DNA of 55,527 nucleotides from Patescibacteria group bacterium (GTDB lineage: Bacteria; Patescibacteriota; Patescibacteriia; UBA1558; UBA10009): NCBI GenBank assembly GCA_018818425.1, contig JAHISB010000043.1, forward strand, positions 1 to 55,527, given 5' to 3'. Made by a program: the position numbers and the translations under genes. Below the pieces are notes generated by a model. It was not told where the DNA came from, searched no databases, and saw nothing but the letters and a program-made list of their open reading frames with translations. The first letter of the stretch is position 1, and every line of letters starts with the position of its first letter. Shown here in pieces: positions 13,230 to 55,526 of this stretch.

Positions 13230-13272
13230 TTATTTTTTTAACGTCGCTCAATTTAATCATTAATATTTCATT

Positions 13273-13357
13273 GGAACATGGGAGCATGTGAGCATTTGAT
13301 CTAATGTTCTCATGTTCTAATGCTCCAGTGTTCTAATGTTCTCATGTTCTAATGTTC
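13273..13357. repeat. 8-nt GARCAYKR word dyad, locus A (atpB|atpE junction)
   Basis: GGAACATG GGAGCATG TGAGCATTTGATC, then TAATGTTC TCATGTTC TAATGCTC CAGTGTTC TAATGTTC TCATGTTC TAATGTTC. Overlaps the atpB stop codon. Confidence 0.85.
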
Positions 13358-14257
13358 TTCCTCTGTACTGGCGATTGAAAAATAAACCAGCGTCAGCATG
13401 GCAAAAATAAGGGCTTGGATCATGCCGACGATAACTTCTAAAAACATAAAGGGTATGGGCAAAACAAAGGCAAAGATGACTGCCATGGCCGCCAGCAAAA
13501 CTTCGCCGGCAAAAATATTGCCGAACAACCTGAACGACAGCGATGCCACCTTGGCAATCTCGCCGATTATCTCGATTACTCCGACAAAAGCTTTGATAGG
13601 ATTGACAAAAATAATGGTCGGTTCTTTCTTAAATTTTTTGGGAATTTCGGCAAAGGCCTTAAGATTGATGAACTTATTAAAATATTTCCAAATGCCTACG
13701 GTAATAAAGCCAAAAAGATTAGAACCGATTACGGCAAAAAGCGCCAGAGCTAAAGTGGTATTTAAATCCGCTGTGCCTCCCCGGAAAAACGGCACGAACG
13801 CTGAATGGCCTGCGTGAGTTTCGATAAAACCGATTGAGCCAATGCCGGGGATTAATCCCAGCCAATTGTTAATCAAAATAAACATAAAAATAGCAAAAAC
13901 AATGGGAAAGATCTTTTTGGTTTTAGCCCGCGAGCCGGTAACTGAATCGGCCATTTTCATAGCGCCTTCTAATATTTCTTCGGCATAATTTTGCAGGCCT
14001 TTGGGAATTCGCTGAATTTTTTTGCCGATGATTACTGCCAATAGAACGATAATGATAACAGTGATCCATGAATTTAATAATGAGTTTGTTACCGTAAAAT
14101 TTCCTAAATTAAAAACCGGCTCCGCATACAAAGTCGGCTCATGGCTGATATGACCTTGGACTTCCTGCTGTCCCTGATTTTCCTCGCCTAAAACTTCCGG
14201 ACTCTGGGCGTCCTTAGTTTGATTAATATTTTCTGTTTGTTCAATATTTTGACTCAT
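13349..14257 (-). CDS. atpB: Fo ATP synthase a subunit
   Basis: 302 aa, polytopic. Conserved LSFRLFGNIFAGE arginine motif. Confidence 0.9.
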   Translation of the reverse strand: MSQNIEQTENINQTKDAQSPEVLGEENQGQQEVQGHISHEPTLYAEPVFNLGNFTVTNSLLNSWITVIIIVLLAVIIGKKIQRIPKGLQNYAEEILEGAMKMADSVTGSRAKTKKIFPIVFAIFMFILINNWLGLIPGIGSIGFIETHAGHSAFVPFFRGGTADLNTTLALALFAVIGSNLFGFITVGIWKYFNKFINLKAFAEIPKKFKKEPTIIFVNPIKAFVGVIEIIGEIAKVASLSFRLFGNIFAGEVLLAAMAVIFAFVLPIPFMFLEVIVGMIQALIFAMLTLVYFSIASTEEEH

Positions 14258-17505: not shown

Positions 17506-17530
17506 AAGTTTATTTGATTAATGATTATTG

Positions 17531-17662
17531 GAACATTAGAACATTGGAACACTGGAACATTAGAACATGAGAACACTGGAACATTAGAACACTGGAACAT
17601 TAGAACATTAGAACACTGGAACATGAGAACATGGGATCAAGTGCTAACATGCTCACATGATC
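17531..17662. repeat. 8-nt GARCAYKR word array, locus B (13 direct units plus core)
   Basis: GAACATTA GAACATTG GAACACTG ... GAACATGG (17531-17634), followed by GATCAAGTGCTAACATGCTCACATGATC. Overlaps the metG stop codon. Orientation relative to the genes is opposite to locus A. Confidence 0.9.
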
Positions 17663-21028: not shown

Positions 21029-21044
21029 AAATTTGTGGGGTTAT

Positions 21045-21143
21045 GAGAACATGGGAGCATGTGATCATGGGAGCATGGGAGCACTTGATCTCATGTTCTC
21101 ATTTTCCAGTGTTCTAATGCTCTAATGTTCCAGTGTTCTAATG
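21045..21143. repeat. 8-nt GARCAYKR word dyad, locus C
   Basis: GAGAACATGGGAGCATGTGATCATGGGAGCATGGGAGCACTTGATC faces TCATGTTC TCATTTTC CAGTGTTC TAATGCTC TAATGTTC CAGTGTTC. Overlaps the M16 stop codon. Confidence 0.85.
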
Positions 21144-22409
21144 ATTTTTGAGTATTTTTAAAAACTTTTTTTTATCTTGATAAGGCCCGATGATGCCCAG
21201 ATTGATTTTCTGGTTTTTGATGATTTCTTGGGCTGTTTGCCGGACCTGGCCGGCTGTGACTTTTTCCACTTTCTTTAACTGCTGGTCTATGGTTTCTATT
21301 TTATTTTTCAAAAGCTGCTGAGCGGCCAGCCACTGAATTCTGGCCGCTGAATCTTCTAGCCCCAAAATCAATTTGCCTTTGATATATTCCTTGCTCCGCT
21401 TCAGTTCTTCGGCAGTGACATCTTTATTAACCGCTTTTTCCAGCTCTTTAAGAATGGTTTTTATAGCTAAATTAATTTTTGATTTATCCAGTCCGGCATA
21501 AACCGCCAACGCCCCGGTGTCCTGATACGGGCTAAGGTCGGTTTTAATATAATAGGCCAGCCCCAGCTTTTCCCTGATTTCCAAAAACAATCTAGAGCTC
21601 ATATTACCTCCTAAAATAATGGCTAACAACAATAACGGGTAGTTCTTGGGATTAGTGATTTTATAAGCGGGAAATCCCAAGGCCAGATGAACCTGCTCGG
21701 TGGCTTTGGTTTTTAAATTGATTCTAGGGCTTTTTTGGAGACTGCTAAATTTTTTAAATGAACTTTTTTTAAAACCGCTGGCTGGCTGATTAAAATATTG
21801 ACTGGCCAGCTTTTTAGTTTTTGGCTGGTTGAATTTGCCGCCCACCGCCACGATAACGTTATCAGCCGCATAATTAGCTTTAAAATAATTAACAATTTCG
21901 GCATGAGAAATTTTTCGGATATTCTCTTTGGAACCGCTGATTACTCTGGCCAGCGAACTGCCCGCAAACACCGCCTCTTCAAAAACATTATCAACCATCA
22001 AAAGCGGATTGTCTTCGTACATATTAATTTCTTCGATAATCACTCCTCTTTCTCTTTCCATCTCTTCTTTGGCAAAAAGTGAATTATGGAGCATGTCCGA
22101 AACCACATCCAAAGCCAGCTCTAAATGTTCGTGATTAACCTTAATGTAATAGCCGGTATGGTCTTTGGCTGTAAAAGCGTTAAAGCTGGCGCCGACGCCG
22201 TCCAGTTCCTTGGTAATATCTAAGCTGGTCGGCCGTTTTTTGGTGCCTTTAAACAGCAGATGTTCGACAAAATGCGAAATGCCATTAAGCTTTGCGGATT
22301 CATAGCGCGAACCGACTTTAACCAATATTAAAACCGTGACCGTTTCTGTGCCTTCCAAGGGCGCCAACAGCAGTTTGGTTTTATTATGTAAAGTTTCTAG
22401 TGTATACAT
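21138..22409 (-). CDS. M16 (pitrilysin) family zinc peptidase
   Basis: HFVEH (HxxEH) zinc motif and downstream EE. I prefer the ATG at 22409, because the 8 extra residues of the track ORF are encoded by repeat locus D. Confidence 0.85.
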   Translation of the reverse strand: MYTLETLHNKTKLLLAPLEGTETVTVLILVKVGSRYESAKLNGISHFVEHLLFKGTKKRPTSLDITKELDGVGASFNAFTAKDHTGYYIKVNHEHLELALDVVSDMLHNSLFAKEEMERERGVIIEEINMYEDNPLLMVDNVFEEAVFAGSSLARVISGSKENIRKISHAEIVNYFKANYAADNVIVAVGGKFNQPKTKKLASQYFNQPASGFKKSSFKKFSSLQKSPRINLKTKATEQVHLALGFPAYKITNPKNYPLLLLAIILGGNMSSRLFLEIREKLGLAYYIKTDLSPYQDTGALAVYAGLDKSKINLAIKTILKELEKAVNKDVTAEELKRSKEYIKGKLILGLEDSAARIQWLAAQQLLKNKIETIDQQLKKVEKVTAGQVRQTAQEIIKNQKINLGIIGPYQDKKKFLKILKNH

Positions 22410-22563
22410 GGGAGCATGGGAGCATGAGAACATGGGAGCAAGTGTTCTAATGCTCTAATGTTCTCATGTTCCAGTGTTTTAATGCTCTAATGTTCTCATG
22501 TTCCAGTGTTCTAATGCTCTAATGTTCTCATGTTCCAGTGTTTTAATGTTCTGGTGTTCTAAT
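22407..22563. repeat. 8-nt GARCAYKR word dyad, locus D (largest, with a 32-nt higher-order repeat)
   Basis: A short forward arm CATGGGAGCATGGGAGCATGAGAACATGGGAGCA, then about 15 complementary units. These include (TAATGCTC TAATGTTC TCATGTTC CAGTGTTY) x3. Overlaps the glyQS stop codon. Confidence 0.9.
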
Positions 22564-23959
22564 ACCCAAACTTCTCTCTAAAATAATCCCTAAGTTCTTT
22601 GATGTTCACCCGATCCTGCTTCATGCTGTCACGGTCTCTGACGGTTACTTTTTTATCTTCTAATGAATCAAAATCAATGGTTACACAATAAGGCGTGCCG
22701 ATTTCATCCTGCCTGCGGTAGCGCTTGCCGATTGTTTGAGTTGTATCGTAAGCGCACATATAGTTTTCTTTAAGCTGGCCGTAAACACTCATCGAAAGCT
22801 CTTCTAATTTTTCTTTTTTTGAAAGCGGCAGGATAGCTATTTTAATCGGCGCTAAATCTTTATGAAGCTTAAGCACAGTTTCTGTTTCGTGCTTAGCATC
22901 TTTATCGCCGCTTCTGGCTTCCATCTCGGTATAAGCATCAACAATAAAAGCCAGAACCGACCTGTCGATACCGCCGGAAGTTTCTATAATATACGGCAGG
23001 TATTTCTCTTTGGAATCTTCGTCTAAAATTTTTAAATCGTGTCCCGAAAATTCTTCGTGTCTTTTTAAATCGAAATCACCGCGATTATGAATGCCTTCCA
23101 GTTCTTTATCGGCAAAAGGGAAATCGTACTCTATATCCACTGCAGCTTTGGCATAATGCGCCAGTTCGTTGTTTTTATGCCGGCGGAGTTTAAGTTTAGC
23201 TTTATTAAGCCCCATTTTCTGATACCATTCGAATCTCTGCTGTTGCCAGTATTCAAACCATTTTTCCGCTTCAGCGGGATGAACAAAATACTGCATCTCC
23301 ATCTGTTCAAACTCCCTGGTCCTGAAAGTAAAATTGCCCGGGGTAATTTCGTTCCTAAAGGCCTTGCCGATCTGGGCGATGCCAAAAGGCATTTTTTTAT
23401 TGGCGGACATCCTCACGTTTTCAAAATTGACGTAAATGCCCTGGGCCGTTTCCGGTCTTAAATAAATTTCCGAAGCTTTGTTTTCCAACGCGCCCATAAA
23501 AGTTTTAAACATTAAATTAAAATCTCTGATTTCTGTCAGCTCGCCATCGCATTCCGGACATTTTATTTTATGCTTTTTAAAATCCGCCTGCCTAAAATCC
23601 GGCTTAATGCCCTTGGATTCTAAAAGATGGTCAGCGCGGAATCTTTTTTTGCATTTTTTACAGTCAACCAGCGGGTCAGTAAAACCTTCCAGATGACCAG
23701 AAGCTTCCCAGATTTTTGGATGCATTAAAATTGAAGAATCCAAGCCCGCCACATCGTCTCTTAGCTGAACCATTTCTTTCCACCAGGCCTTTTTAAGATT
23801 ATTCTTGAGTTCTATGCCTAAAGGACCGTAATCGTAGCAGGAATTAATACCGCCGTAGATTTCGGATGATTGAAAGATGAAGCCGCGGCGTTTGGCTAAA
23901 GAGACTATTTTTTCCATTGTATCTTGTTTGTCCTCTGATTTATCTGATTTCTTTGACAT
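22559..23959 (-). CDS. glyQS: Glycyl-tRNA synthetase (alpha2 type)
   Basis: 466 aa with class II motifs and typical GlyQS sequence (FRNEITPGNFTFRTREFEQME). Confidence 0.95.
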   Translation of the reverse strand: MSKKSDKSEDKQDTMEKIVSLAKRRGFIFQSSEIYGGINSCYDYGPLGIELKNNLKKAWWKEMVQLRDDVAGLDSSILMHPKIWEASGHLEGFTDPLVDCKKCKKRFRADHLLESKGIKPDFRQADFKKHKIKCPECDGELTEIRDFNLMFKTFMGALENKASEIYLRPETAQGIYVNFENVRMSANKKMPFGIAQIGKAFRNEITPGNFTFRTREFEQMEMQYFVHPAEAEKWFEYWQQQRFEWYQKMGLNKAKLKLRRHKNNELAHYAKAAVDIEYDFPFADKELEGIHNRGDFDLKRHEEFSGHDLKILDEDSKEKYLPYIIETSGGIDRSVLAFIVDAYTEMEARSGDKDAKHETETVLKLHKDLAPIKIAILPLSKKEKLEELSMSVYGQLKENYMCAYDTTQTIGKRYRRQDEIGTPYCVTIDFDSLEDKKVTVRDRDSMKQDRVNIKELRDYFREKFGY

Positions 23960-32740: not shown

Positions 32741-33292
32741 TTATATATAATCAATCTCAATTAATTCTTTTTCTGTTTTGTAATGATTATGAAATGATGA
32801 GTAAGGCCAAGTTATGGGATCGTCAACGATTCGATGCTTAACAGCGTTATAGTTGATGTAATCTATTTTATTATCTAATTCCCGGTCCGAACGAACAATT
32901 CTGTCGTGGAAAGAACGTTGCCAAATGGAATTTAGACATCGTTGGCCTTCTAACCACGCGCCGGGCAGCCGACAGCCAGGCTGTCGGCTGCGGAGATCGT
33001 GGTTATATTTGCGAATATCACGCGCAGTTCGATATTTTATCAACTGCATTATCTTGGAAATATTTTTTCCTCTTCTAGGTAGAATTAATAAATGAACATG
33101 CCAAGGTATAATACAATAGGCGTATAATCTAAATTTTAACTTTCTTCGATAAAAATCAATATTTTTTAATAAAATCTGACAATATTCATTATTGGTAAAT
33201 ATTCTTTGATCATTAATTGTATTTGATGTGACAAAATAAATCTCACCATCAACATTCATTCTTATTTGAGGCATAAAATCGCTTTTCGTCAA
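32741..33292 (-). CDS. IS200-like Y1 (HUH) transposase, REP-associated tyrosine transposase (RAYT)-like
   Basis: HUH motif HVHLLI and C-terminal YINYNAVKH tyrosine helix. The track start is TTG, and an ATG alternative lies at 33274. Contains a REP palindrome in-frame and has two more copies just upstream. Confidence 0.8.
   Translation of the reverse strand: MTKSDFMPQIRMNVDGEIYFVTSNTINDQRIFTNNEYCQILLKNIDFYRRKLKFRLYAYCIIPWHVHLLILPRRGKNISKIMQLIKYRTARDIRKYNHDLRSRQPGCRLPGAWLEGQRCLNSIWQRSFHDRIVRSDRELDNKIDYINYNAVKHRIVDDPITWPYSSFHNHYKTEKELIEIDYI
32965..32991. repeat. Perfect 27-bp REP palindrome inside the RAYT gene
   Basis: GCAGCCGACAGCC A GGCTGTCGGCTGC, encoding SRQPGCRLP. Confidence 0.9.
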
Positions 33293-33304
33293 TTGTTATC
33301 TATC

Positions 33305-33442
33305 CGGCAACCGACAGCCAGGCTGTCGGCTTCGTGGTTCGGTGAATGATTGCTGTCGGCTGCGGATGTGCGGTAGGCAATGGATGTGAGGCAGACAACG
33401 GATGTGCGGCAACCGACAGCCAGGCTGTCGGCTTCGTGGTTC
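33305..33442. repeat. REP cluster: two identical 36-bp units flanking GGATGTG(C/A)GG repeats
   Basis: CGGCAACCGACAGCCAGGCTGTCGGCTTCGTGGTTC at 33305-33340 and 33407-33442. A half-site TGCTGTCGGCTGCGG at 33351-33365. Three copies of an 18-bp GGATGTG... unit lie between them. Confidence 0.9.
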
Positions 33443-37185: not shown

Positions 37186-37225
37186 TCCGCACCTTCCCTG
37201 AATACCCCGCAGGAAAGTGCGGGAT
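37186..37225. repeat. CCGCACCTTCC / CCCCGCAGG hairpin element (short copy)
   Basis: TCCGCACCTTCC-CTGAATACCCCGCA-GGAAAGTGCGGGA. It resembles the reverse complement of 55497-55526. Confidence 0.6.
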
Positions 37226-39297: not shown

Positions 39298-39384
39298 AGT
39301 TCTAATAATATTAATTAATTCTCAATTCTTTGTTAATCGTAAATTGTGAGATAAACTCTCAACAAAAAAACAACAAATCTCGGA

Positions 39385-39407
39385 AGCCGACAGCCAGGCT
39401 GTCGGCT
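39385..39407. repeat. REP palindrome copy
   Basis: AGCCGACAGCCAGGCTGTCGGCT, followed by two small hairpins (CCAGCCAGAGGCTGG and TCGGCCTTTGGCCGA). Confidence 0.85.
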
Positions 39408-39465
39408 GCAACGTTTAATCCCCAGCCCTCCCAGCCAGAGGCTGGTCGGCCTTTGGCCGAAATCA

Positions 39466-40314: not shown

Positions 40315-40366
40315 TTTAATTTATTTTATACCCCGTTGCTTTTATAATTCCGAAGCGGCGGAGCTT

Positions 40367-40500
40367 AGCATGAGAACATTGGAGCATGGGAGCATGAGAA
40401 CATTGGAGCATGGGAGCATTGGAGCATGGGAGCATTTGATCATATGTTCTAATGCTCTAATGTTCAAGTGTTCCAGTGTTCCCATGCTCCAATGTTCCAT
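40367..40500. repeat. 8-nt GARCAYKR word dyad, locus E
   Basis: Eight forward units (GAACATTG GAGCATGG GAGCATGA ...) meet at GAGCATTTGATC with seven complementary units (TAATGCTC TAATGTTC ... CCATGCTC CAATGTTC). Confidence 0.9.
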
Positions 40501-40511
40501 TGAGTATAATA

Positions 40512-41176: not shown

Positions 41177-41803
41177 TTATTTCCAATCATAAATTCTGTC
41201 AATCACTTTTAAATCGTGGTCTTGGTTATTATCATGCCAGGTTACTTGAGAAGTTAACTGCCAGCCAATTAAGCCCAAGCCAAAACTCTGACAATGCTCG
41301 CTGTTATCTAAAACCGCTTCTTCTTCAGACAATTCGCTCCAGCAAATTTCCTGAATGGTAATTAACCTTTTAAAACTGGTGAGCTCGCCGCCGTCATCGT
41401 GAGAAAAAACGCCGTTATCGGCATTATAATAAAGCTGGCATTCTGAACAGTCGGCAATATCATCGGTCTGGTCTGCGGTTGACCAACTGTTATCAGTAGG
41501 ATTAAAATTAACGGTCAGGCGATAGTTATATTGAGGATCTTCTAAAATTCCTGCATCCCAATCCTCACCGGCCAGCCAGTTGCTGTCGCGCATCTGCCTG
41601 ATAACTTCCAGGCCTTCCCTGGCAAAATTAGCGGCCATTAATCTGCCTTCGCCGGCTACCGAAACATTTAAATTAAAAGTGGTTAAAGTCAAGCCGCTGA
41701 TAATGCCTGTTACCAAAATGCCTAAAGCGACAATAACTTCCATAAAAGTCATGCCTTCCTGGGCAAGCAAATTTTTAGACGATAATAACTTTTTAAAAAT
41801 CAT
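41177..41803 (-). CDS. Prepilin-type minor pilin (PilV-like position)
   Basis: QEGMTFMEVIVALGILVTG N-terminal methylation-type motif. Confidence 0.7.
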   Translation of the reverse strand: MIFKKLLSSKNLLAQEGMTFMEVIVALGILVTGIISGLTLTTFNLNVSVAGEGRLMAANFAREGLEVIRQMRDSNWLAGEDWDAGILEDPQYNYRLTVNFNPTDNSWSTADQTDDIADCSECQLYYNADNGVFSHDDGGELTSFKRLITIQEICWSELSEEEAVLDNSEHCQSFGLGLIGWQLTSQVTWHDNNQDHDLKVIDRIYDWK

Positions 41804-41830
41804 TATTGATAATCGGTTAAATCAGCAAGT

Positions 41831-42553
41831 TTATTTGCCTTTTGGTTTTTTGGGCTTTTTAAAGCCGTCGCCGCCCAGCATATTGCCCAATGCCTGGCCG
41901 CCTTCCAAAACTTCGGCGGTAATGCGGCCGGTTATGCGGTTAACATTAACTACGCCCATCTTGCCCGGCACATTAGATCTAAACAAGGTAATGTTGGACT
42001 CAGTAGCATGCTCCTCCTCGCCCTCAACATAATTAATATAAATCATTGGTTTAGGCGGTTTAAAAACAACGGCTAAATCATCAATCTCCTCTGAACCGGC
42101 CTCTACACCTATTAAATAAATATCTTCTGGCAGCTCCACGGTTTGGATAATGTCGTCTTCCAGGCCATAATTTTTATCACCATTGTCGTCAATAAAAATT
42201 ACATATTCCCAAGCAGGCGTAGTCGCATCAAAATAAACGCCATAAGCAATGCTGGACATATCCTGGTCGCTGACTCCGGCCAGAGCCATGGTCTGCGCTT
42301 TTCTGATGTCGCTGGCCACCTGCTCAATGGCCACTCTGAATTCTTCTATGTGCCGGCTTTCCCTTAGCCCCTGGTAGGAAAAAATAAACACCATCATAAA
42401 AATGCTGACCACCACTATAAGCTCGACAAGGGTAAACCCCGCACCAGAAATTGGTGCGCGGGTAAAGCCGGCTGTTTTTTTGAATCTAGCGAAAATTGAG
42501 ATTAACCTAGGGCCGATTTTTTTATCATCAGCCGCTTTTTTTTCTTTAACCAT
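41831..42553 (-). CDS. Prepilin-type protein (FimT/GspH-like position) with long leader
   Basis: GAGFTLVELIVVVSIF preceded by a 38-aa leader containing GFTRAP. Overlaps pilD by 8 nt. Confidence 0.7.
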   Translation of the reverse strand: MVKEKKAADDKKIGPRLISIFARFKKTAGFTRAPISGAGFTLVELIVVVSIFMMVFIFSYQGLRESRHIEEFRVAIEQVASDIRKAQTMALAGVSDQDMSSIAYGVYFDATTPAWEYVIFIDDNGDKNYGLEDDIIQTVELPEDIYLIGVEAGSEEIDDLAVVFKPPKPMIYINYVEGEEEHATESNITLFRSNVPGKMGVVNVNRITGRITAEVLEGGQALGNMLGGDGFKKPKKPKGK

Positions 42554-43313
42554 ATAAAAAACTCCTTGAATACCACTCTAAAATTTGTTGACCAAATAAT
42601 AGAGTGATTAATGTGGCGGCCGATAAAAAAGTGCCGAAAGGAATTTGGCTATGCCATTCTTTTTTTTTGGCCATAATCAAAACCAGGCCGATAATCGAGC
42701 CGCTTATGTAAGCTAAAAATAAAGCAATTAAAGCCTGGGGCCAGCCCAGCATGGCTCCCATAACCAAGCCCAGCCGGACATCGCCCCCGCCGATCCATTT
42801 GCCCTTGGAAAGTACCAGCTGAAAAAAGAAAAAACCCGCCACCAAGATGCTGGCCAGCAATAAGTTGAATAAGGGGTGGCCCAAAAGCAAATTTATCAGC
42901 AAAGCTATAAAAAAGGCGGGCAAGCTGACTTTGTCAACAATCAAGTAGTGCTTTAAGTCGTAAACAAAAATAATAATTAAAAAACAGCTGAAGACCAAAA
43001 AAACTAAAAACTGAAAATTCAAGACTGGAAATTCGTTTTGATACTTTAAATAGCCGAGAATGAATATTAAAGCGGTGGCAAGTTCCACCAAAGGATACTG
43101 CCAGGAAATTTTTTTATGGCAGTAACGGCACTTGGCTCTTAAAAAAATAAAGCTTAAAACAGGAACTAAATCTTTAACCGCTAAAAGATGCCGGCAATGG
43201 GGGCATTTGGACCGTTCGCTGACAATGTTCTCGCCGGATTTTAAACGATAAATAACGGCATTCAAAAAACTGCCGATAATTAAGCCGAAAATAAATAAAA
43301 AAAATAGTATCAT
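42546..43313 (-). CDS. pilD: Prepilin peptidase (A24 family)
   Basis: 255 aa. N-terminal CPHC ... CRYC zinc motif and polytopic A24 domain with the GGGDV aspartate motif. Confidence 0.9.
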   Translation of the reverse strand: MILFFLFIFGLIIGSFLNAVIYRLKSGENIVSERSKCPHCRHLLAVKDLVPVLSFIFLRAKCRYCHKKISWQYPLVELATALIFILGYLKYQNEFPVLNFQFLVFLVFSCFLIIIFVYDLKHYLIVDKVSLPAFFIALLINLLLGHPLFNLLLASILVAGFFFFQLVLSKGKWIGGGDVRLGLVMGAMLGWPQALIALFLAYISGSIIGLVLIMAKKKEWHSQIPFGTFLSAATLITLLFGQQILEWYSRSFLYG

Positions 43314-43355
43314 TGCTTAAATTATACCATTTTTAACCTTTAAAAATCAACAAAA

Positions 43356-43949
43356 TTACTGATCCTTTAAATAACCCAGGCAGATAACACTGCCCCGCTT
43401 AGTCTGTATTCTGCCTGTACCGGCATTATCGCTGCAGTTTAAAGAGCCGATATTGCCGCCGGATGATATACAATCAAGACTGGGGGCATAATTATGAACG
43501 CCATCAATATCGCCGTCTGTATTCCTTTCTTTTTCTAAAACAACAGCCACTAAAAAATTTTCATCTGAATCTTCTAAAAGACCGCCCTGGCCCTCATTAC
43601 TGCTGCAAACAACATAAAAATAACCATCATCATCCTTAGGATCTTTTGGCAAGCCCACAGCTCCCGTGTAAATACTTAGTTCTGCTTCTAATGCCTGCCA
43701 AGTGGGCGTGCTGGCATGAATATTAGGAACATAACCATTGTCTTCCACATAAAGTTCTAAAACATCATTTAATAACTGCGCATCATATATTCTTTTAGCA
43801 TCTCTGGATTTTCTTCTGGAGTCGCCGATATAAACAACGGATATAGCAACAATAATGCCGATAATAGAAATAGTTATCATCAGCTCAATTAAAGTAAACC
43901 CCGCACGGGTAAAGCTCTGCCTTTTTCGGCATTTCTTTCTATTAAACAT
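43356..43949 (-). CDS. Type IV pilin
   Basis: [25 protein letters not shown]-terminus and C-terminal Cys residues. Confidence 0.75.
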   Translation of the reverse strand: MFNRKKCRKRQSFTRAGFTLIELMITISIIGIIVAISVVYIGDSRRKSRDAKRIYDAQLLNDVLELYVEDNGYVPNIHASTPTWQALEAELSIYTGAVGLPKDPKDDDGYFYVVCSSNEGQGGLLEDSDENFLVAVVLEKERNTDGDIDGVHNYAPSLDCISSGGNIGSLNCSDNAGTGRIQTKRGSVICLGYLKDQ

Positions 43950-44000
43950 AAGTTAAATATGGATCATGCCAGTTCAATTTAGAGGGGTCAGACAAATTTA

Positions 44001-44160
44001 TTCACGGATAAATCACCGATAATTCACCGATCTATCACTGATGAATCACGGATGAATCACTGATTGATAATATAACATCTCCGTGATTCATCCGTGGATA
44101 TCCGTGATAGATCCGTGCATCTCCCCGCCAAAGGCGGGCAAGCGTGATTTATCCGTGAGC
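44001..44160. repeat. ATCACGGAT/ATCACCGAT word dyad plus small GC hairpins
   Basis: TTCACGGATAAATCACCGATAATTCACCGATCTATCACTGATGAATCACGGATGAATCACTGAT faces ATCTCCGTGATTCATCCGTGGATATCCGTGATAGATCCGTG. CCCGCCAAAGGCGGG follows. Confidence 0.7.
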
Positions 44161-44263
44161 AATCCCCGGCCAGCTTTGCTAGCGGGGCTGGCAGCGCGTC
44201 ATCTGTCAATAGACTTCAAGTTTATTGAGAAGTGAACTCTCCGTGACCATCAAGCTGCTAGAT

Positions 44264-44881
44264 TTATTGCTCCTGATAAATACAGTAATGGGGGTCGGCG
44301 CAACTCCCAAAAACACCACCGTCTAAAATAAAAAGTTCATTATAATCCAAATAATCACTATTGCCGTTAACGCCAACATTATTGTATGTATTTGTATTGT
44401 CTCTAATTGTTGATCTGAGATCGTCATTATCATTATCAAGCGCGGAATTGTCCCCGTCTTCTAAAACAGCTCCTAAATAGAAACGGCGCGGATTGACCAT
44501 ATTTCTCCAGCCATAAAAATAAATATCGCCGTCTTCCAAATTAGGCGGGAAGGGCAGTTCGTTTAAATAAGGAGCTAAAAGCAATTGCAGATCAGCCCAA
44601 TCAGCTGGCGCAGGATATTGAGAATTTGAATCTTCGCTGGCATAAAGCTCTATGGCTTTGCGCATAATGTCTAAATCGCTGATCCGGCGGGCGTCTCTGG
44701 CCCTGGTTCTGGCGTTAGTTAAGCTGGCCACCACCAAAGTGGATAATAAGCCAATAACGGCAATCACCACTAAAAGTTCAACTATGGTAAAACCCGCACC
44801 TTGAGCGAAACCGAAAGGTGCGCGAGTAAAACCCAGCTGTTGCTTTAAACGCTTTTCCCCGCTTCTAATTTTCTCCCTCAT
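44264..44881 (-). CDS. Type IV pilin with long duplicated-motif leader
   Basis: [30 protein letters not shown]. Confidence 0.8.
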   Translation of the reverse strand: MREKIRSGEKRLKQQLGFTRAPFGFAQGAGFTIVELLVVIAVIGLLSTLVVASLTNARTRARDARRISDLDIMRKAIELYASEDSNSQYPAPADWADLQLLLAPYLNELPFPPNLEDGDIYFYGWRNMVNPRRFYLGAVLEDGDNSALDNDNDDLRSTIRDNTNTYNNVGVNGNSDYLDYNELFILDGGVFGSCADPHYCIYQEQ

Positions 44882-44899
44882 ATTGTTAAAATTACTTAA

Positions 44900-45454
44900 T
44901 TATGCTCCATCAGCATCACAAACGCCAATCTGGCCGCCGCTTTCTATAGCATAAACACCGCTGGCCATAAAACTGCCAACGCCAACCTCTAAATAAAAGC
45001 AAATTTCGTAATCTGCCACCGTAGCGCCGCCTTCGCCTATGGCGTTGCTGATAGAATAATCGCAGGTGAAATCCAGGCCTCCGGTACAGGGCCAGGAATC
45101 ACCGGTATGGCTGGGGTCCTGAAAATAAGAAAACTGCTCTACCAGGCCCGGTCCGCCGCAACTGGTAGTCTTGGTCGCTTCGGCAGTGCAACCCTCTAAA
45201 GGGGCCGGAAAAGTTCCTTCGGTAGCTTCCATTTCTAAGATAGTGGAAAGCTGTTTAACATCAGAAAGACGACGGGCATCTCTGGCTTTGGCTCTGGCGC
45301 TGTTTAAATTAACCATAGCCAGCGAAGAAAGCAGACCGATAATGGCAATCACCACCAAAAGTTCAATAAGAGTAAACCCAGCGCCTTGAGCAAAGCCGAA
45401 AGGTGCTTGGGTAAATCCCGCTCTTTTTTTAAAAATGGGCTTAGCTTTCCTCAT
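44900..45454 (-). CDS. Type IV pilin with long duplicated-motif leader (paralog of 52216..52713)
   Basis: [30 protein letters not shown]. The C-terminal DYEICFYLE motif is shared with the 52216 pilin. Confidence 0.8.
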
Positions 45455-45663
45455 TTATCTATATTATAATAAATCAAAAAATTATTTCTTATAGAGTTAT
45501 TAACAAGTTTTTATATTATACCATTTTTTTAAGGTTTTTACAATTTTTTTCTCAATATAAACAATGGAGTTAAAATTAAATTTGTGTTAAAATTAAACCA
45601 ATATTATAAGTTATCAACGGACCGCTTCGCCGCAGCATGCAATAAATATTTAAATCAAAGTCA

Positions 45664-47313
45664 ATGAAAATAAATAACTCATTCCTCATATCGCTATTAA
45701 TTTTACTAATTTTATTATTCGGTTTCAGTCTTTTTAAAAATATTTCTTATCCTCTTCTCTGGAATGATGAAAGTATAACTGTAATGTTGGGGAAAAGAGT
45801 ATTAAATTATGGTTACCCAAAAGTCCATGATGAAAAAAATATTATTTATCATTTTTTCCCTGATCCAAATTTAGGTGTTTGGAGAAAAATTGATGCTAAT
45901 ATTGATGGCGGATGGACACAATATTATTTCTCAACTATCGGTATTAAACTTTCTGAATTTACAGATGATATCTACTTAAAGACCGCCTTATTAAGAATAC
46001 CCTTTGCTGTCATTGGATTAGCAGGATTAATAATTTTCGCCATTGCTATATCTCAAATCTTCTCTAATAAAAAAGAAAGGATAACTTTCTTTATTTTATT
46101 CTCGATATTTGAACTTTTTTCGATATCGCTTATTCTTCATTTAAGAGAAGTGCGATATTATTCTATAGTGATCTTTCTATATTCCTTATTAATATACCTT
46201 TTTATTAAATTTAATTATCTAAAAAATATTAAGCGTAAAACTTATAATGTTATACTAATATTATTACTATTGCTGTTATTAAACACTTTTTATACTTCTT
46301 TTATTATTTTTATTCTTATACTGCTAATTTATGAAGGGATAAAATTTATAAGAAATATTCTACAAAACAAAAATTATTACACAGAAAGTAAAAAATTATT
46401 ACAAGCTACCTTACCTATATTTATTTCGATACTAATTGCGACCCCCTTTACTATATTTTATAAAATAATTCCTATTCTCAAAGCGCTTTCTGAATTAAAA
46501 CACTTTAACCTATCTACCTATTTTTCACATATTAATACTATTGTAACTTTTTTTTATCAATATGAATTTCTATACCTCGCTTTAATAATAAAGCTTGTTC
46601 TAACGTATCTGTTATTCTTTAAAAAAAAGAAGATATTAATTAATTTCCATAAAATAAAATTATCAAACTTTTTTCTACTATTATTTATTATATATATTTT
46701 ACTAATTGCTAAGATGCCCTATCTCTATGAACGTTATTTCATTTATATTCAACCAATTTTAATAGGTATGATTATTATTGATATTTTTATTCTATATGAA
46801 TTACTTTTAGATAATATTAAAAAAACAAAAAAATATTTTTATCAATTTTTATTTATTCTTATAGTTTTTGGATTAATATTTAAAATTAATATAATATCAG
46901 AACATTTATATGAATTAAATCAACCCTATTATGGACCAGTTGATTATGTTATAAATTATTTAAAAGAAAAATTTGTTAAACCAGAAAATTTAATTATCGC
47001 CACAAACTATGAAGAAACCTCATATATGTATTATTTAGGCAGTAAAGTTATCATTGGCTATGCCAGAGCAAATTTAAAAGAAGATTTAAAAAAACAGCCT
47101 GACATAATAATCTACCGTAAATATAATCCTGGTGACCCAGGAATATTTAATTATTTCTTACAAAATAATAAATATAATAAAATAATTTTTCCTGTCTCTG
47201 ATTACTTTGTAAACAATATGCCCGATACCTGTTGTCATTTATTTAGAACTAAAATGCCGGAAAATAGAAATCAAAATCTCATCATCTTCGTAAAACAAAA
47301 AGAGAGTGATTAA
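45664..47313 (+). CDS. GT-C-fold polytopic membrane glycosyltransferase (ArnT/PMT_2-like), extremely AT-rich
   Basis: 549 aa, about 12 or more TM helices. First-loop WNDES acidic motif and REVRYYS motif. One of only two credible plus-strand genes in the window. Confidence 0.5.
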   Translation: MKINNSFLISLLILLILLFGFSLFKNISYPLLWNDESITVMLGKRVLNYGYPKVHDEKNIIYHFFPDPNLGVWRKIDANIDGGWTQYYFSTIGIKLSEFTDDIYLKTALLRIPFAVIGLAGLIIFAIAISQIFSNKKERITFFILFSIFELFSISLILHLREVRYYSIVIFLYSLLIYLFIKFNYLKNIKRKTYNVILILLLLLLLNTFYTSFIIFILILLIYEGIKFIRNILQNKNYYTESKKLLQATLPIFISILIATPFTIFYKIIPILKALSELKHFNLSTYFSHINTIVTFFYQYEFLYLALIIKLVLTYLLFFKKKKILINFHKIKLSNFFLLLFIIYILLIAKMPYLYERYFIYIQPILIGMIIIDIFILYELLLDNIKKTKKYFYQFLFILIVFGLIFKINIISEHLYELNQPYYGPVDYVINYLKEKFVKPENLIIATNYEETSYMYYLGSKVIIGYARANLKEDLKKQPDIIIYRKYNPGDPGIFNYFLQNNKYNKIIFPVSDYFVNNMPDTCCHLFRTKMPENRNQNLIIFVKQKESD

Positions 47314-48222: not shown

Positions 48223-49737
48223 TTACTGCTGTTTAGTAAAATTAAAAACCTTTATCCGCTCTATCTGGCAAAAATTATCCTGAAGCTGCCAGCCGTTATT
48301 CAAGAACCACTTAAAAACTTTATTATCAGGGTCTAAAATAGGAACGTAAATAGCCTCTACCAGTAAAATATTATCGTAATCTTCCACCGCGCCGGCCATT
48401 TTTTCAACATTATCATTGGTTACTACAGGACCGGCTCCTCTTTGAACCACTCTCTCTGCAAACGATAAGCTGTCATTGATAGGATAAAAACCCTCCACAG
48501 GCAAAGAGCCGGTGTAATATCTTTTAAGCATCATGGCAAAGGCAAAATTATGAACAATAATTTTGGAATCGGGCGAACTTATCTGGTTAATGCATTCATC
48601 CACCCTGGTCCAGTAATTTCTTTCGGTAAAAAAACTGCCATAACCCACTATCAGTGAAAAAATTATTAAAGCCATTAAGCTGGCTTGCATTGCTTTACGA
48701 GCATTCAACCAATTGACTATGCCCTGGCCGATTAATAAATAAGTAAAAACAGAAGCTAAAATTAAATATCTGGGCGTTACCCAATGAGCAACAAAACAAC
48801 CCGCTAATGACGCCAAAACCAAGGCCAAACTATAAACAACAGGAGGACTGAATTTAAATTTAACGCCTAAATCATAATCCCCTTTTATTCTTTTGACAAT
48901 CAAAAAACTGGCTAAAGCAAAAAGCGGCAATAGTGAATAAAATAATTCCAAATAGAAAGCGCTGTTTGTGAGTCTGAAAAAATATTTAAAAATTTCTGTA
49001 AAAAAATGGAAATCATAGGGGACATAAAAAAGATAGGTTGAAAAAACGGCCTCTTTTTTAACCAAGAAAGAAATAATAATATAGCACAATAAAGGAAGAG
49101 CGATAACCGAGTAGCTTAAAAGCCATGCTCTGATGCTTTTTTTTCGCCTAATATAATTAAAGATAATAAAACACGCTTGGGCCAGTATCAAAAAACTGCC
49201 AACTAAATGAGTAAAGGCCAAAAGCAAAGAGCTTAAGATATAACCAATCCAATTAAGCCGAGTTTTATTATCGTTAAAAAGCTGCCAGAAAAACCAGGTA
49301 GACAGCAAGCTTAAAAAAACCAGCAAAGAATAAGGCCTGGCTTCGGTGGTTAAAAAAATCTGATAGGTGGATAAAGTATAGAATATCGCGGCTATAAGCG
49401 CTGTTTTGGCATTAAAAAGTTTCTTACCTATTAAATAAAGCAAGGGGATATTGCCGACCGCAAAAATTATTGACAGCAACCTGGTAACAAATTCCGTTTC
49501 TGCAAAAAATTTATACCAAAACCATAAAATAATGCTGTATAAAGGAACATTAACGTCCTGAATAAGCAAATCCAGCATTCCCTTAAAGGAAAATTTGGTA
49601 AAATTAACCGCATATAATTCATCAAACCAGTAACTGCCTAAAAAATGGCTAAAGAGCAGTCTTAAGCCCAGGCCGGCTAAGGTGAGCAGGGCTACCAGCC
49701 AAAAATATCCTCTGTTTTTAAAAATTTGTTTAATCAT
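48223..49737 (-). CDS. Glycosyltransferase family 39/83-like (ArnT/PMT_2) membrane protein
   Basis: 504 aa. WFDELYA first-loop motif, DVNVPLYSIILWFWYKFF, TEARPYSL. Polytopic. Confidence 0.75.
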   Translation of the reverse strand: MIKQIFKNRGYFWLVALLTLAGLGLRLLFSHFLGSYWFDELYAVNFTKFSFKGMLDLLIQDVNVPLYSIILWFWYKFFAETEFVTRLLSIIFAVGNIPLLYLIGKKLFNAKTALIAAIFYTLSTYQIFLTTEARPYSLLVFLSLLSTWFFWQLFNDNKTRLNWIGYILSSLLLAFTHLVGSFLILAQACFIIFNYIRRKKSIRAWLLSYSVIALPLLCYIIISFLVKKEAVFSTYLFYVPYDFHFFTEIFKYFFRLTNSAFYLELFYSLLPLFALASFLIVKRIKGDYDLGVKFKFSPPVVYSLALVLASLAGCFVAHWVTPRYLILASVFTYLLIGQGIVNWLNARKAMQASLMALIIFSLIVGYGSFFTERNYWTRVDECINQISSPDSKIIVHNFAFAMMLKRYYTGSLPVEGFYPINDSLSFAERVVQRGAGPVVTNDNVEKMAGAVEDYDNILLVEAIYVPILDPDNKVFKWFLNNGWQLQDNFCQIERIKVFNFTKQQ

Positions 49738-51397
49738 TGTTTATAATCTGGTAAATTTTGGTTTTTTTGTCTTCGTAAACCTGCTTAAAAGAATCGCTGG
49801 AGCTTAAGTTGCTTTCCAGCTTAACAAAGCTCTTTTCTACAAAAACATAGTCGGCGTTGAAATTCTCTTTGATTTTCTTGGCTAAATCCTCCTGTTCTTT
49901 GCCGCTGATAATGTTTTCGTACAGCCAATACTTTTCCTGATCTTTTTCATACATAAAGGTATGATCCAGCCCTGTTAAATAATAGTTATGGTCGTTATAA
50001 TAAAATAAAAATGGGAAATCGTCCCAGTCGGAATGAAACACCACGGAATGCTTTGGGGTATTTTGCCTAAGCCACTGCGCCGCTTCTTGATAATGGTTAA
50101 TAGGAAAACCCACCAGCATATCTTTTTTAACCGCTAAAATATCTCGGGGCGCCTGAAATAAAAAAGTCAAGACAAAAATTGACAGCAGAACTCCTAAACA
50201 AGTGGTCTTAAAATTAAAGATTTTTTTTATTTCCTCTTTGGCAAACTGCTTAAGATAACAGTTAAAGCTAAAGGCAAAAAAGATAATGGTTAAAGGTATA
50301 AAGAATTCAATATTTCTGCGGGATTTTAAGGTTAAAAACAAAAGGGCCAATGCCAGCAGGCCCCAAGTTAAAGAGTGAACCGACTGTTTTTTAAAAGTTA
50401 TAACAACCAGGGCCAGCCCCATTATCAGCAAAGCGCAGATTAGGGGGTGGATGGTAATTAAATTAAACGGGCTGTAAGGGTACCATTCGTTGCCCACCCT
50501 GACAATTTCCTGATAGTTGATAATGGCAATCTTGACAATCTGCACCCAGTAAAAATGCAAATTAGCCGGAAAATAAGGGTTGATAACCAGACCGGCAACA
50601 CTGCCGCCCACTGTGGCCGCCAAACCGGCCCAGGGCAAATTCTGATTTTTGAACCCCGCGCCTTGAGAATGCTCTGTAATTTCTGTCACAGGTCTGCGCC
50701 GCTTCTTTCTTACTACAAGATGTAATAACTTCATAAGACAGAGGCGCGGGGTAACTTTCTGCCGCCAAGAACCGGCAAAACTCCGGCTCAATAGCCAACA
50801 AGCTAACCAGTAAAAAACAGTCAGGGCTATCATCATTGGCCAGCCGCCATAAAGCCAGACCGCCAGAAAGGAAATTATAAATAAATCCAGCCATCTTTTT
50901 TTAACCAGAAAATAATAAGCCAGAAGCAGAAAAATTAAAAAAAGCGCCGGCGCTTTGACCAGACTGGCTCTCCACAGCCAGTCCCGGGACACAAATAAAA
51001 CTATAATGTAAAAAAACGGATAAACAACCTTAAAACTTTTAAGCAGCCAGTAAAACGCCAAAACAGCCAAAGAGCCAAAGATGGTAGTGGCGGTTTTTAC
51101 CCCCACCAGCGGATCGTCCAACATCACAAAAGGCACCAGCAATAGGTGGTATAAAAAGTGATGGTCCACAAAATTATTGGCCAGATCGGTTTCCTGAAGC
51201 CACGGCAGTTGATGCAAAACCTGCCCCTCGCTTAAAAACTTGGCGATTTTAGCGTGATAAAACGAATCCGGCTCCGGCAGAGTAAAGGTTCCCTGCAAAG
51301 AAGAAAAAACAACCAGAGCCAAAATAAAAACTATCAGATAATCCAAATTGAATTTTTGGAAAATGCCCCGGAGCGCCGACCAAAGTTTAAACATCAT
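49730..51397 (-). CDS. GT-C membrane glycosyltransferase with STT3/AglB/PglB-like features
   Basis: 555 aa. EPDSFYHAK in the first loop (51254-51274). After the last TM comes AAQWLRQNTPKHSVVFHSDWDDFPFLFYY (SDWDDF at 50015-50032), laid out like the WWDYG region of oligosaccharyltransferases. Overlaps the next gene by 8 nt. Confidence 0.5.
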   Translation of the reverse strand: MMFKLWSALRGIFQKFNLDYLIVFILALVVFSSLQGTFTLPEPDSFYHAKIAKFLSEGQVLHQLPWLQETDLANNFVDHHFLYHLLLVPFVMLDDPLVGVKTATTIFGSLAVLAFYWLLKSFKVVYPFFYIIVLFVSRDWLWRASLVKAPALFLIFLLLAYYFLVKKRWLDLFIISFLAVWLYGGWPMMIALTVFYWLACWLLSRSFAGSWRQKVTPRLCLMKLLHLVVRKKRRRPVTEITEHSQGAGFKNQNLPWAGLAATVGGSVAGLVINPYFPANLHFYWVQIVKIAIINYQEIVRVGNEWYPYSPFNLITIHPLICALLIMGLALVVITFKKQSVHSLTWGLLALALLFLTLKSRRNIEFFIPLTIIFFAFSFNCYLKQFAKEEIKKIFNFKTTCLGVLLSIFVLTFLFQAPRDILAVKKDMLVGFPINHYQEAAQWLRQNTPKHSVVFHSDWDDFPFLFYYNDHNYYLTGLDHTFMYEKDQEKYWLYENIISGKEQEDLAKKIKENFNADYVFVEKSFVKLESNLSSSDSFKQVYEDKKTKIYQIINND

Positions 51398-51534: not shown

Positions 51535-52122
51535 ATGAAAAAATCATCATATAATCCCCAAATCCATCACCGGCGATCGATTAGATTGCCCAATTATGAT
51601 TATTCGCAACCGGGCTATTATTTTATCACCATTTGCACAAAAAATAGGGATTGTTTACTTGGTGTTACAAAAAATAATAAAATTGAATTATCACCGATTG
51701 GTGAAATTGCTAAACAATGCTGGTTGGATATTCCAAAACATTATCCCCATACACGGTTGGATGAATACATTATAATGCCGAACCATGTTCATGGGATAAT
51801 TTTGGCCGAATTCAACAACGTGGCAGGGGCACACGTAGGGGCAATTCATGAATTGCCCCTACGTGTGCCCCTGCCGCATACCAAAATATTTCGCCGTAGA
51901 ATGTTAATACCAAAAATTATCGGGCGTTTCAAAATGAATTCGGCCAAAATTATCAACCAATTATGCAATACGCAAGGGATTCCGTTTTGGCAACGCAATT
52001 ATTACGAACATATCATCAGAAATAAAGAATCATTATATCGCATCCGTCAATACATTAAAAATAATCCTAAAAATTGGATAAACGACAGCAATAATCCTGA
52101 TAATAAAAAATCGACCAAATAA
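51535..52122 (+). CDS. IS200-like Y1 (HUH) transposase, RAYT-like, second copy
   Basis: 195 aa. HUH motif HVHGII and C-terminal YIKNNPKNW tyrosine helix. Carries a 54-bp perfect palindrome in-frame. Confidence 0.8.
   Translation: MKKSSYNPQIHHRRSIRLPNYDYSQPGYYFITICTKNRDCLLGVTKNNKIELSPIGEIAKQCWLDIPKHYPHTRLDEYIIMPNHVHGIILAEFNNVAGAHVGAIHELPLRVPLPHTKIFRRRMLIPKIIGRFKMNSAKIINQLCNTQGIPFWQRNYYEHIIRNKESLYRIRQYIKNNPKNWINDSNNPDNKKSTK
51822..51875. repeat. Perfect 54-bp palindrome inside the RAYT-like gene
   Basis: GGCAGGGGCACACGTAGGGGCAATTCA|TGAATTGCCCCTACGTGTGCCCCTGCC, checked base by base. It encodes AGAHVGAIHELPLRVPLP. Confidence 0.95.
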
Positions 52123-52215: not shown

Positions 52216-52713
52216 CTAAGGAATAGGTTTAACACACGTACCAATTAAACCGCCTGTTGTTATCGCATGACAACCGTCGCCTAAACTGCCGGAGCCCGAC
52301 TCTAAATAAAAGCAGATTTCGTAATCTTCCACAGTAGCGCCTGCATCGCCATCTTCTTGAGCAATGGAATATTGGCAAGTATTACCGGTACCGCCGGTAC
52401 AATCAAGGCCACAGCCAGTCTCGGGACTGGAAGGATCGAGAAAGCCGTCAAACTGGTCTACCTGGTGGGGGCCAGTGCAACTATTTGTATTAACACCAGC
52501 CGTAGTACAGCCCTCCAAAGCATTAATACCGGTGCCTTCGGTGGCTGCCATTTCTATAATGGTGGAAAGCTGTTTAACATCGGAGAGCCGGCGGGCGTCT
52601 CTAGCTTTTTGCCGGGCATTGTTTAAGCTGACCACGGCCAAAGTTGAAAGCAAGCCGATAATGGCAATTACCACTAAAAGCTCAATTAAAGTAAAACCTT
52701 TTTTATTTCTCAT
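52216..52713 (-). CDS. pilA: Type IV pilin, probable major pilin (short leader)
   Basis: MRNKKG|[24 protein letters not shown]. Four or more Cys in the C-terminal half. It has its own terminator and a 300-bp upstream region. Confidence 0.8.
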   Translation of the reverse strand: MRNKKGFTLIELLVVIAIIGLLSTLAVVSLNNARQKARDARRLSDVKQLSTIIEMAATEGTGINALEGCTTAGVNTNSCTGPHQVDQFDGFLDPSSPETGCGLDCTGGTGNTCQYSIAQEDGDAGATVEDYEICFYLESGSGSLGDGCHAITTGGLIGTCVKPIP

Positions 52714-55392: not shown

Positions 55393-55526
55393 ATCCCGCA
55401 CCTTCCTGCGGGGTATTTGACCCCGCAGGAAGGAATTATTTAATTCCCCTTCATCCCCGCAGCATCATGCCAAAGGCAGATTCGCCTATGGCGAAAGCTG
55501 CGGGGTATTCGGGGAAGGTGCGGGAT
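55393..55526. repeat. About 134-bp nested-hairpin element bounded by 12-bp inverted repeats, upstream of pilT
   Basis: ATCCCGCACCTT (55393-55404) pairs with AAGGTGCGGGAT (55515-55526). Inner perfect 13-bp stem: CCTTCCTGCGGGG (55401-55413) with CCCCGCAGGAAGG (55421-55433). Second stem: CCCCGCAGC (55455-55463) with GCTGCGGGG (55497-55505). The element reaches the window edge. Confidence 0.65.

Follow-up and report, generated by a model that had tools for sequence, protein, structure and literature searches.

Duplicated processing motifs in prepilin leaders of a Patescibacteria group bacterium as probable scars of a MITE-like palindromic element

Known palindromic elements and the present family

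Insertion of palindromic elements into bacterial protein genes has been described before. According to passages of a review of MITEs (short for miniature inverted-repeat transposable elements), Rickettsia palindromic elements (RPEs) of about 150 bp insert in frame into protein genes and add a peptide without destroying the product, and some copies of bacterial MITEs such as Correia/NEMIS, ERIC, BOX and SPRITE are intragenic and form fusions (PMC10969869). Here we analysed contig JAHISB010000043.1 (GCA_018818425.1) of a Patescibacteria group bacterium, a stretch of 55,527 nt referred to as the window, in which the long leaders of four prepilin genes carry a duplicated processing motif and, in part of them, a hairpin. 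The duplicated motif together with the hairpin is very probably a scar left by a MITE-like transposable element, short, palindromic and non-autonomous, copies of which are dispersed through the 1.23-Mb genome (G000) to which the window belongs.

As reported for RPEs, palindromes lying in frame in UvrC, a GT4 glycosyltransferase, a GT-C-like membrane protein gene and the pilins add peptide segments to their products. Compared with RPEs by description only, the present family is shorter (23-166 nt), has other ends and a clear 4-nt target duplication, occurs in the candidate phyla radiation (CPR) and other phyla, and is strongly biased towards prepilin cleavage codons, a bias absent from the RPE description as given in those passages. 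With bacterial MITEs, as these are characterised there, it has in common that copies are short and non-coding, numerous in each genome, bounded by terminal inverted repeats and flanked by target duplications. It is unlike them in having an end of 8-9 nt conserved across phyla around a free interior, and in recurring at the cleavage codons of one protein family. CC[CA]GCACC / GGTGC[GT]GG stands at both ends of the 33 copies in G000 and of 30 and 13 matches in two further genomes, G049 and G058, and the target duplications differ between copies (CAGG and TGAA; TTGAC, GTCAA and CAAGT). Neither G000 nor the other loci examined yielded an insertion sequence that has these ends and could be the parent; all genomes used are MAG-like (metagenome-assembled genome) drafts, and this bears on every negative result for transposases given below.

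In REP/RAYT systems, copies of the repetitive extragenic palindrome (REP) flank the RAYT gene and no target is duplicated, and IS200/IS605-derived elements insert 3' of a fixed tetra- or pentanucleotide, also without duplication. The present family resembles REPs and REPINs with RAYT in consisting of dispersed, short, GC-rich, imperfect palindromes in a genome that holds Y1 transposase genes. It differs from them in its target duplications, in not being extragenic only, in leaving the Y1 genes unflanked and in being abundant in genomes without a Y1_Tnp match. Membership in the REP/RAYT class was rejected, as the flanks of the Y1 open reading frame (ORF) at 51535-52122 are free of the family, duplications are present and neither G049 nor G058 gave a Y1_Tnp match. 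Derivation from IS200/IS605 was rejected as well, as the same word stands on both flanks of a copy and the word varies between copies.

Type IVb prepilins have leaders of roughly 15-30 residues before the conserved Gly, and the window leaders, of 17-40 residues from the predicted start codons, resemble them in length. They differ in that the extra length is translated mobile palindrome and that the mature parts are type IVa-like; the length is no evidence that these pilins belong to type IVb. A search of the open full-text literature returned no paper that describes palindromes or MITEs inserted into the leaders of prepilins, and none with the leader peptide GFTPHHF, and a search of the MITE review for the terms 'pilin' and 'signal' gave neither word (PMC10969869). 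In-frame insertion of MITEs is known; a strong cross-phylum association with one functional site is unreported.

The four prepilin leaders of the window

The following genes, named here by their first coordinate, were identified from ORFs and Pfam matches. The arrow marks the expected cut.

41831-45454, minus strand: gene block of four pilins and one prepilin peptidase
41831-42553, minus strand: pilin with leader ...KKTAGFTRAPISGAG↓FTLVE (GFTRAPISGAG before the cut), Pfam N_methyl
42546-43313, minus strand: prepilin peptidase A24 (PilD), Pfam A24_N_bact 1.2e-33 and Peptidase_A24 4.7e-15
43356-43949, minus strand: pilin with leader ...KRQSFTRAG↓FTLIE, Pfam N_methyl
44264-44881, minus strand: pilin, Pfam N_methyl
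44900-45454, minus strand: pilin, Pfam N_methyl
52216-52713, minus strand: major-pilin-like paralogue with unoccupied site MRNKKG↓FTLIE, sharing 66% identity with pilin 44900, counted from the cleavage site on

Each of the four block pilins has a class III signal peptide with Gly(-1), Phe(+1), Glu(+5), a hydrophobic helix and an N_methyl match, two of the four matches (20.0 and 20.4 bits) being slightly below the curated cut-off of 21.2. The cognate A24 peptidase of type IV prepilins is present at 42546-43313. A24 peptidases remove the prepilin leader, and class III signal peptides are cut after Gly, i.e. G↓FT, which is two residues earlier than the cut after GFT assumed in the preliminary description of this DNA. 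Codons for G/S-F-T are present twice in all four leaders, with the upstream copy in frame in each. The repeats enclose a palindrome in three genes and a 15-nt remnant in the fourth (43356-43949). Scanned in all six frames, the complete genome (1.23 Mb) was found to have 11 credible ORFs with a class III signal, and the duplication is present in only these 4. ORFs and motifs were as first described, and so was the lack of the feature in the major pilin (52216-52713) and in the genes at 41177-41803 and ~41081. The inserts are:

44786-44833, minus strand: 39-nt in-frame insert in pilin 44264-44881, GTTTTAC direct repeats around the palindrome CGCGCACCTT...AAGGTGCGGG
45371-45418, minus strand: 39-nt in-frame insert in pilin 44900-45454, a diverged homologue of the 44264 insert
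42431-42469, minus strand: 30-nt in-frame insert in pilin 41831-42553, encoding GFT-RAPISGAG-FT
43893-43916, minus strand: 15-nt remnant in pilin 43356-43949 (SFT-RAG-FT), TTTACCCG-TGCGGGGTTTAC

On the coding strand the 44264 insert reads TTTAC-TCGCGCACCTT-TCGGTTTCGCTC-AAGGTGCGGG-TTTTAC and the 41831 insert TTTAC-CCGCGCACCA-ATTTC-TGGTGCGGGG-TTTAC. The 43356 remnant is exactly the latter structure minus 15 internal bases, CGCACCAATTTCTGG, and the arms of the 44900 insert, CAAGCACC / GGCGCTGG, hold two uncompensated mismatches. The direct repeat common to the inserts is TTTAC; the longer repeat GGTTTTAC, initially taken to be general, is exact in one gene only.

The proposed coincidence of the motif with a hairpin is borne out strongly by two leaders and fails to different degrees in the others. 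RNA folding gave a stable structure for the 44264 leader (z -3.2; 0/200 shuffles at least as stable) and for the 41831 leader (z -2.8; 2/200), a weak one for 44900 (z -1.4; 18/200) and no hairpin for 43356 (z -0.2; 77/200). No hairpin was found in the uninserted leader of the major pilin. The hairpins lie 45-115 nt 3' of the start codons and do not cover the ribosome binding sites. An Rfam search of 41500-46000 yielded no family, its below-gathering matches being chance microRNA-like ones at an 8-nt array (44019-44124). Tandem units of 8 nt (GAACATTA / GAACACTG-like, found in either orientation) form arrays in intergenic DNA at ~13240-13370, 17520-17680, 21030-21160, 22380-22580 and 40350-40510, and a related CACGGAT-type array lies at ~43990-44160 between two pilin genes with a read depth of ~185 versus ~36.

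The window copies are old, all of them standing in frame (39, 39, 30 and 15 nt). The tandem pilins 44264 and 44900 have one homologous insert in common, in which 9 of 16 codons differ, eight by synonymous changes and one by a non-synonymous change (R/Q). The next 60 codons differ by 13 synonymous versus 33 non-synonymous changes (Fisher P = 0.001 against the insert). From this comparison of codons the insert peptide of the pair looks constrained, and since the peptide was kept while the DNA drifted, translation of the long leader and some constraint on it are implied. Stem arms are hit by several of these synonymous differences, without compensation. A conserved peptide, drifting DNA and a stem that is not maintained make up the very pattern that the preliminary description had named as counter-evidence to a function of the hairpin.

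Contigs from near-identical groundwater runs that aligned to the window contained no deletion alleles of the four inserts. In run X4 one contig of 165 nt (depth 5, short side of 30 letters) connects hairpin-like sequence with the start region of the 43356 pilin; it might represent an orthologue in which the hairpin is complete, but as evidence it is too weak. Among the runs listed as containing this stretch none was of RNA. All four groundwater runs contain many contigs of other pilin genes that match 45336-45376, leave the window at 45376 and continue as AAAAAAGG-type sequence, i.e. as the uninserted KKG↓FT leader.

The dispersed family and its target sites

The family is defined by the ends (T/C)CC[CA]GCACC...GGTGC[GT]GG(A/G). 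The 33 copies listed in G000 have interiors that are highly variable in sequence and length, and the word CCGCACCTT occurs 29 times in this genome, mostly as paired ends of short palindromic units. An identical 4-nt repeat stands beside the complementary outer base pair in 22 of the 29 copies having both flanks; it is mostly TTTA/TAAA, and CAGG..CAGG and TGAA..TGAA are also found. One intergenic copy, at G000:C1:6908-6939, agrees with the insert of 44264 in 28 of the 33 positions aligned, and since this match extends through the interior, the pilin inserts can be assigned to the dispersed family. The stem word had originally been recognized at two dispersed places of the window, and it was recovered at both and genome-wide. 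Copies outside pilin genes include:

37186-37223, plus strand: short-form 38-nt intergenic copy, TTTAT-TCCGCACCTTCC...GGAAAGTGCGGG-ATTTAT, stem word in common with the pilin inserts
55395-55524, plus strand: long-form 130-nt copy at the contig end, stem word in common with the pilin inserts
50655-50750, minus strand: complete 96-nt copy, inserted in frame in gene 49730-51397 for a GT-C-like membrane protein, arms ACCCCGCGCCT / AGGCGCGGGGT, encoding TPRLCLMKLLHLVVRKKRRRPVTEITEHSQGAG
G000:C51:2384-2446: in-frame copy in UvrC, region of the GIY-YIG motif, ...PGIY-PAPVYKNKIKTSLNFMPNWCGVY-KF...
G000:C21:5999-6070: in-frame copy in a GT4 glycosyltransferase, ...PGQF-IPHHGRPRPLVKHQQSGAGLASGAGF-IILSAGRL..., directly before the FIILSAGRL motif
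G000:C41:1626-1667: in-frame copy at the N-terminus of a 505-aa open frame
G000:C9:46107-46148: in-frame copy at the N-terminus of a 293-aa open frame

The 130-nt form is also found at the start or end of contigs C13, C40 and C54, and six intergenic copies of 36-39 nt have, by our own reading of the listed copies, one orientation relative to TTTAT flanks. Unoccupied counterparts of the sites within enzymes are available. All seven aligned homologues of the GT-C-like protein are without the insert and 22-35 alignment columns shorter, and a paralogue on G000:C43 matches in two pieces around it; relatives lack the UvrC insert in 7/7 and the GT4 insert in 5/5 aligned homologues. The segment of the GT-C-like gene that had been compared with the pilin stems is indeed related to the family, not as a half-site but as one arm of the complete in-frame copy.

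A survey of leaders in related genomes was carried out on 86 genomes of the order with the pattern GGNTTYACN-N{9,39}-GGNTTYACNNTNNTNGAR, that is, two GGNTTYAC words 9-39 nt apart before NTNNTNGAR. It gave 15 matches in six genomes (three in G000, eight in G049 and one each in G058, G080, G060 and G004) and none with the reversed pattern as control. All 15 spacers are palindromes of the element family, with loops in both orientations. Among close relatives, 29 loci contained 61 class III leaders, most of them of 5-8 residues. One leader (L005) reads GFT-PHLFKGVGKIESQTFRKGE-GFT and has TTTAC-CCCTCACCTTTT..AAAAGGTGAGGGG-TTTAC as DNA, a different family member at the same codons. A protein database search with the leader, a query too short to measure frequency, found three foreign matches at E <= 0.001, which carry GFTQHHFGAKSAKSGAGFT, GFTRTNFSSKNSRGFT and GFTRAPYNGAAGFT.

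Scanning prokaryotes at one genome for each species with ACCCMGCACC-N{2,32}-GGTGCKGGGTTYAC found at least 119 stretches, and 80 loci (86 matches) were examined. The same 5-nt word TTYAC stands on both sides in 63 of the 86 matches listed, where the pattern had demanded AC on the left only, and G-F-T-[LIV]-x-E follows directly after the element in 26 of them. By label these 26 are mostly from the CPR (Saccharibacteria, Komeili-, Buchanan-, Jorgensen-, Taylor- and Levy-bacteria, Paceibacterota); the other labels are a Thermodesulfovibrionales MAG, a Methylomirabilis MAG with three pilins at one locus and Gammaproteobacteria-labelled MAGs. Spacing between the two TTYAC words in the 26 listed, taken modulo 3, is 0 in 13, 1 in 10 and 2 in 3, and upstream copies that are out of frame read G-L-P-S-T-T-F... 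or G-I-Y-P-A-P... instead of GFT. With the upstream repeat out of frame in half of these copies (13/26), the repeat appears to be a feature of the DNA and not a general decoy cleavage site.

G049 allows the age of the insertions to be compared with that of the genes. Over seven pilin copies the 28 arm bases are 99% identical and the stems perfect over 14 bp, whereas the next 72 coding nucleotides are 46% identical (36%-89%). The hairpins hence seem to have arrived, or to have been homogenised, long after those pilins diverged, and on this sequence comparison the arrivals at pilin codons seem to be independent. The flanks of non-pilin copies in the same genome co-vary (TTGAC..TTGAC in three, TTGAT..TTGAC in one, GTCAA..GTCAA in two, and CAAGT..CAAGT), as is expected of target-site duplications. 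One to three nested or tandem insertions are held by the G049 pilin leaders, and at the loci examined identical hairpins about 700 nt apart precede tandem pilin genes.

Further arrangements around such copies were observed. Two G049 loci (L045 on C44 and L048 on C56) have tandem hairpin-half units of 45 and 33 nt, multiples of three, in pilin leaders; these expansions, partly masked by N runs, give repeated ...KRGSPSTTFGVKSDA... and ...ARKSGAGFTLL... segments. At L034 (G049:C22), L035 (G058:C79), L087 and L129 a small GIY-YIG-like ORF (...HNGNSIRELKKR...) continues in frame via the hairpin into GAG↓FTLVE, an arrangement that recurs in several genomes and in which the pilin is without an obvious start codon of its own. 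Four non-pilin copies of G049 (L049, L053, L057 and L060) have TTGACA, the -35 promoter consensus, on the right side; TTGAC stands on both sides in the first three and TTGAT on the left in L060, and two more copies carry the reverse complement GTCAA.

Taken together, the dispersed family, the co-varying flanks, the match of 28 out of 33 positions and the empty sites support, of the three explanations initially offered, the insertion of a palindromic element into the GFT codons, accompanied by duplication of the target. The target TTTA(C) lies within the Gly-Phe-Thr codons GGN-TTT-ACN of prepilin genes, and insertion there would duplicate the TTTAC word. In the pilin frame the right end of the element, GGTGCGGG, encodes Gly-Ala-Gly, and because of this the Gly(-1)↓Phe(+1) junction would be rebuilt. 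A new ...G-A-G↓F-T-L-I-E site would thereby arise directly before an unchanged mature pilin, and the old G-F-T would be displaced upstream into the lengthened leader. From the known action of A24 enzymes one may expect the peptidase to remove this leader, leaving the mature protein unaltered and the insertion tolerated.

Site occupancy, mobilisation and alternative explanations

Several observations weigh against insertion scars as the full account. The four occupied sites among 11 pilin sites are to be compared with 14,268 TTTAY sites in G000 (4 of 33 copies; binomial P ~2e-8), and tolerance within a cleaved leader alone cannot explain such occupancy. In G049, similarly, pilin sites account for 7-8 of the 26 distinct exact-arm hairpins. 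Something further has to contribute, be it a preference for the target, recombination that spreads the element among pilin genes, or positive selection. Junk would not be expected to show the eight synonymous versus one non-synonymous codon changes of the tandem insert peptide. Of the four window copies, three depart from a rigid geometry of 9-nt ends and a 4-nt duplication, so that small later adjustments must be assumed, and for the long leaders the start codons are predicted ones. The mobilising enzyme is a further difficulty. No transposase partner was found among the end pairs in G000 or at the other loci examined, the sole PF01609 (IS4/IS5-type) transposase of G000 has ends (CACTAGCGTTGCGTTTAAA) unrelated to the family and was rejected as parent, and the profiles PF13359 and PF13701 had no match in these drafts.

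The search for a mobilising enzyme covered end pairs at longer range. Those in G000 enclose housekeeping genes and no transposase, and those separated by 400-4000 nt at the other loci examined are the hairpins of neighbouring pilin genes, again with no transposase. Kinship with the IS5 ends (GGAAGGTGCG, a similar word) was rejected because that word, seen from the tip of the element, points in the wrong direction, integron attC sites because the core GTTRRRY does not fit GTTTAC or GTTGAC, and DNA uptake sequences because the copy number is far too low. No extended target motif was seen beyond TT[TGC]A(C). GGNTTYAC was considered as an extended target and rejected: 192 such sites exist in G000, yet most non-pilin copies are without GGN.

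One may speculate that this cross-phylum family homes to prepilin cleavage codons, or is positively retained there, as a pilin-specific variation cassette, with leader lengthening or frameshift (through excision, insertion, nesting or slippage at the hairpin) acting as an on/off or dosage switch and the identical palindromes near the 5' ends of many diverged pilin genes as portable recombination points for cassette shuffling. The excess occupancy of pilin sites, the nested and tandem copies, the 45- and 33-nt expansions, both loop orientations, the identical hairpins ~700 nt apart and the protein-level constraint on the window insert peptide fit such a cassette. We nevertheless regard it as a tentative idea that is unlikely to be correct.

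The second explanation initially offered was a regulatory mRNA hairpin over the leader; in a wider form, the hairpin in pilin mRNA or DNA would be under selection, whatever its origin, for an effect on translation rate or mRNA stability or as a site that binds a protein. The occupancy of pilin cleavage codons far beyond chance or tolerance, the strong stems of 44264 and 41831 and the perfect stems in seven G049 pilin genes despite diverged coding sequence speak for it, but perfect G049 stems are equally expected from recent insertion, and two of the four window stems are gone. The tandem paralogues have uncompensated synonymous substitutions in the arms with the peptide kept, the same hairpins occur in intergenic DNA and within unrelated enzymes, the location downstream of the start codons leaves ribosome binding sites uncovered, and the Rfam search of this region gave no family. 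Regulation is accordingly an improbable reason for the feature, which says nothing against a secondary role of the hairpin. Still less probable is the third explanation, in which the upstream G/S-F-T is a second prepilin peptidase site, a decoy or a first step, and processing in stages or in competition is what maintains the duplication. In its favour, all four window genes have the upstream motif in frame; in the tandem pair it has been kept through synonymous changes (GGT/GGA, ACT/ACC), and the insert peptide looks constrained. The repeat is, however, a target duplication in the DNA that flanks non-pilin copies too, and elsewhere the upstream copy reads G-L-P or G-I-Y in half of the pilin-site copies listed, making decoy or two-step processing by PilD unlikely as a general explanation. 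In A24 substrates the hydrophobic helix sets the scissile bond at the membrane-embedded active site, and the upstream site is followed by R/Q-A-P instead of this helix.

An equally remote alternative, in our judgement, is that the elements are REP-like or IS200/IS605-type palindromes which the genome's own Y1 (HUH) transposases mobilise. G000 has three Y1_Tnp genes, two of them in the window and one adjoining the major pilin, and the six short intergenic copies with one orientation relative to TTTAT flanks would agree with it. Single-strand transposition by HUH enzymes makes no target duplications, whereas the flanks of the present family co-vary as true duplications. The family flanks no Y1_Tnp gene of the window, being absent around the ORF at 51535-52122 and replaced by another palindrome family at the gene at 32984. 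G049 (80% complete) and G058 (96% complete), which are rich in family matches (30 and 13), gave no Y1_Tnp match at all.

Both Y1 genes of the window are associated with palindromes of other kinds. The IS200-like ORF beside the major pilin (51535-52122, plus strand), of which Pfam Y1_Tnp covers the C-terminal half only, holds a perfect palindrome at ~51823-51876 (arms 51829-51848/51849-51868, extending outward) that encodes ..VAGAHVGAIHELPLRVPLP..; it is another in-frame palindrome, of a family different from the pilin-leader element. The other gene (Y1_Tnp match 32984-33208) is flanked by a second palindrome family, CGGCAACCGACAGCCAGGCTGTCGGCTTCG-like, with copies at 32963-32998, 33305-33340, 33407-33442 and 39381-39416 and a nested relative at G000:C50:29624-29668. 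This pair looks like a REP/RAYT-type pairing.

For annotation, the scar of a palindromic element explains the recurrent long pilin leaders of the CPR and some other uncultured bacteria that have a second G-F-T or ...KSGAG before FTLIE. The extra leader residues are then translated mobile palindrome and not a new processing signal, and leader length or 'double motifs' are no basis for pilin classes. The conserved ends and the TTTA duplication provide a defined search target for the transposase. The prepilin leaders would also be a natural example of a transposable element that repeatedly occupies a signal-peptide cleavage site while regenerating it, so that the insertion is invisible in the mature protein. 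In these episymbiotic bacteria type IV pili play a central part in attachment and the uptake of DNA, and a preference for this site, should it be mechanistic or selected, would point to an unrecognised way to vary or regulate them.

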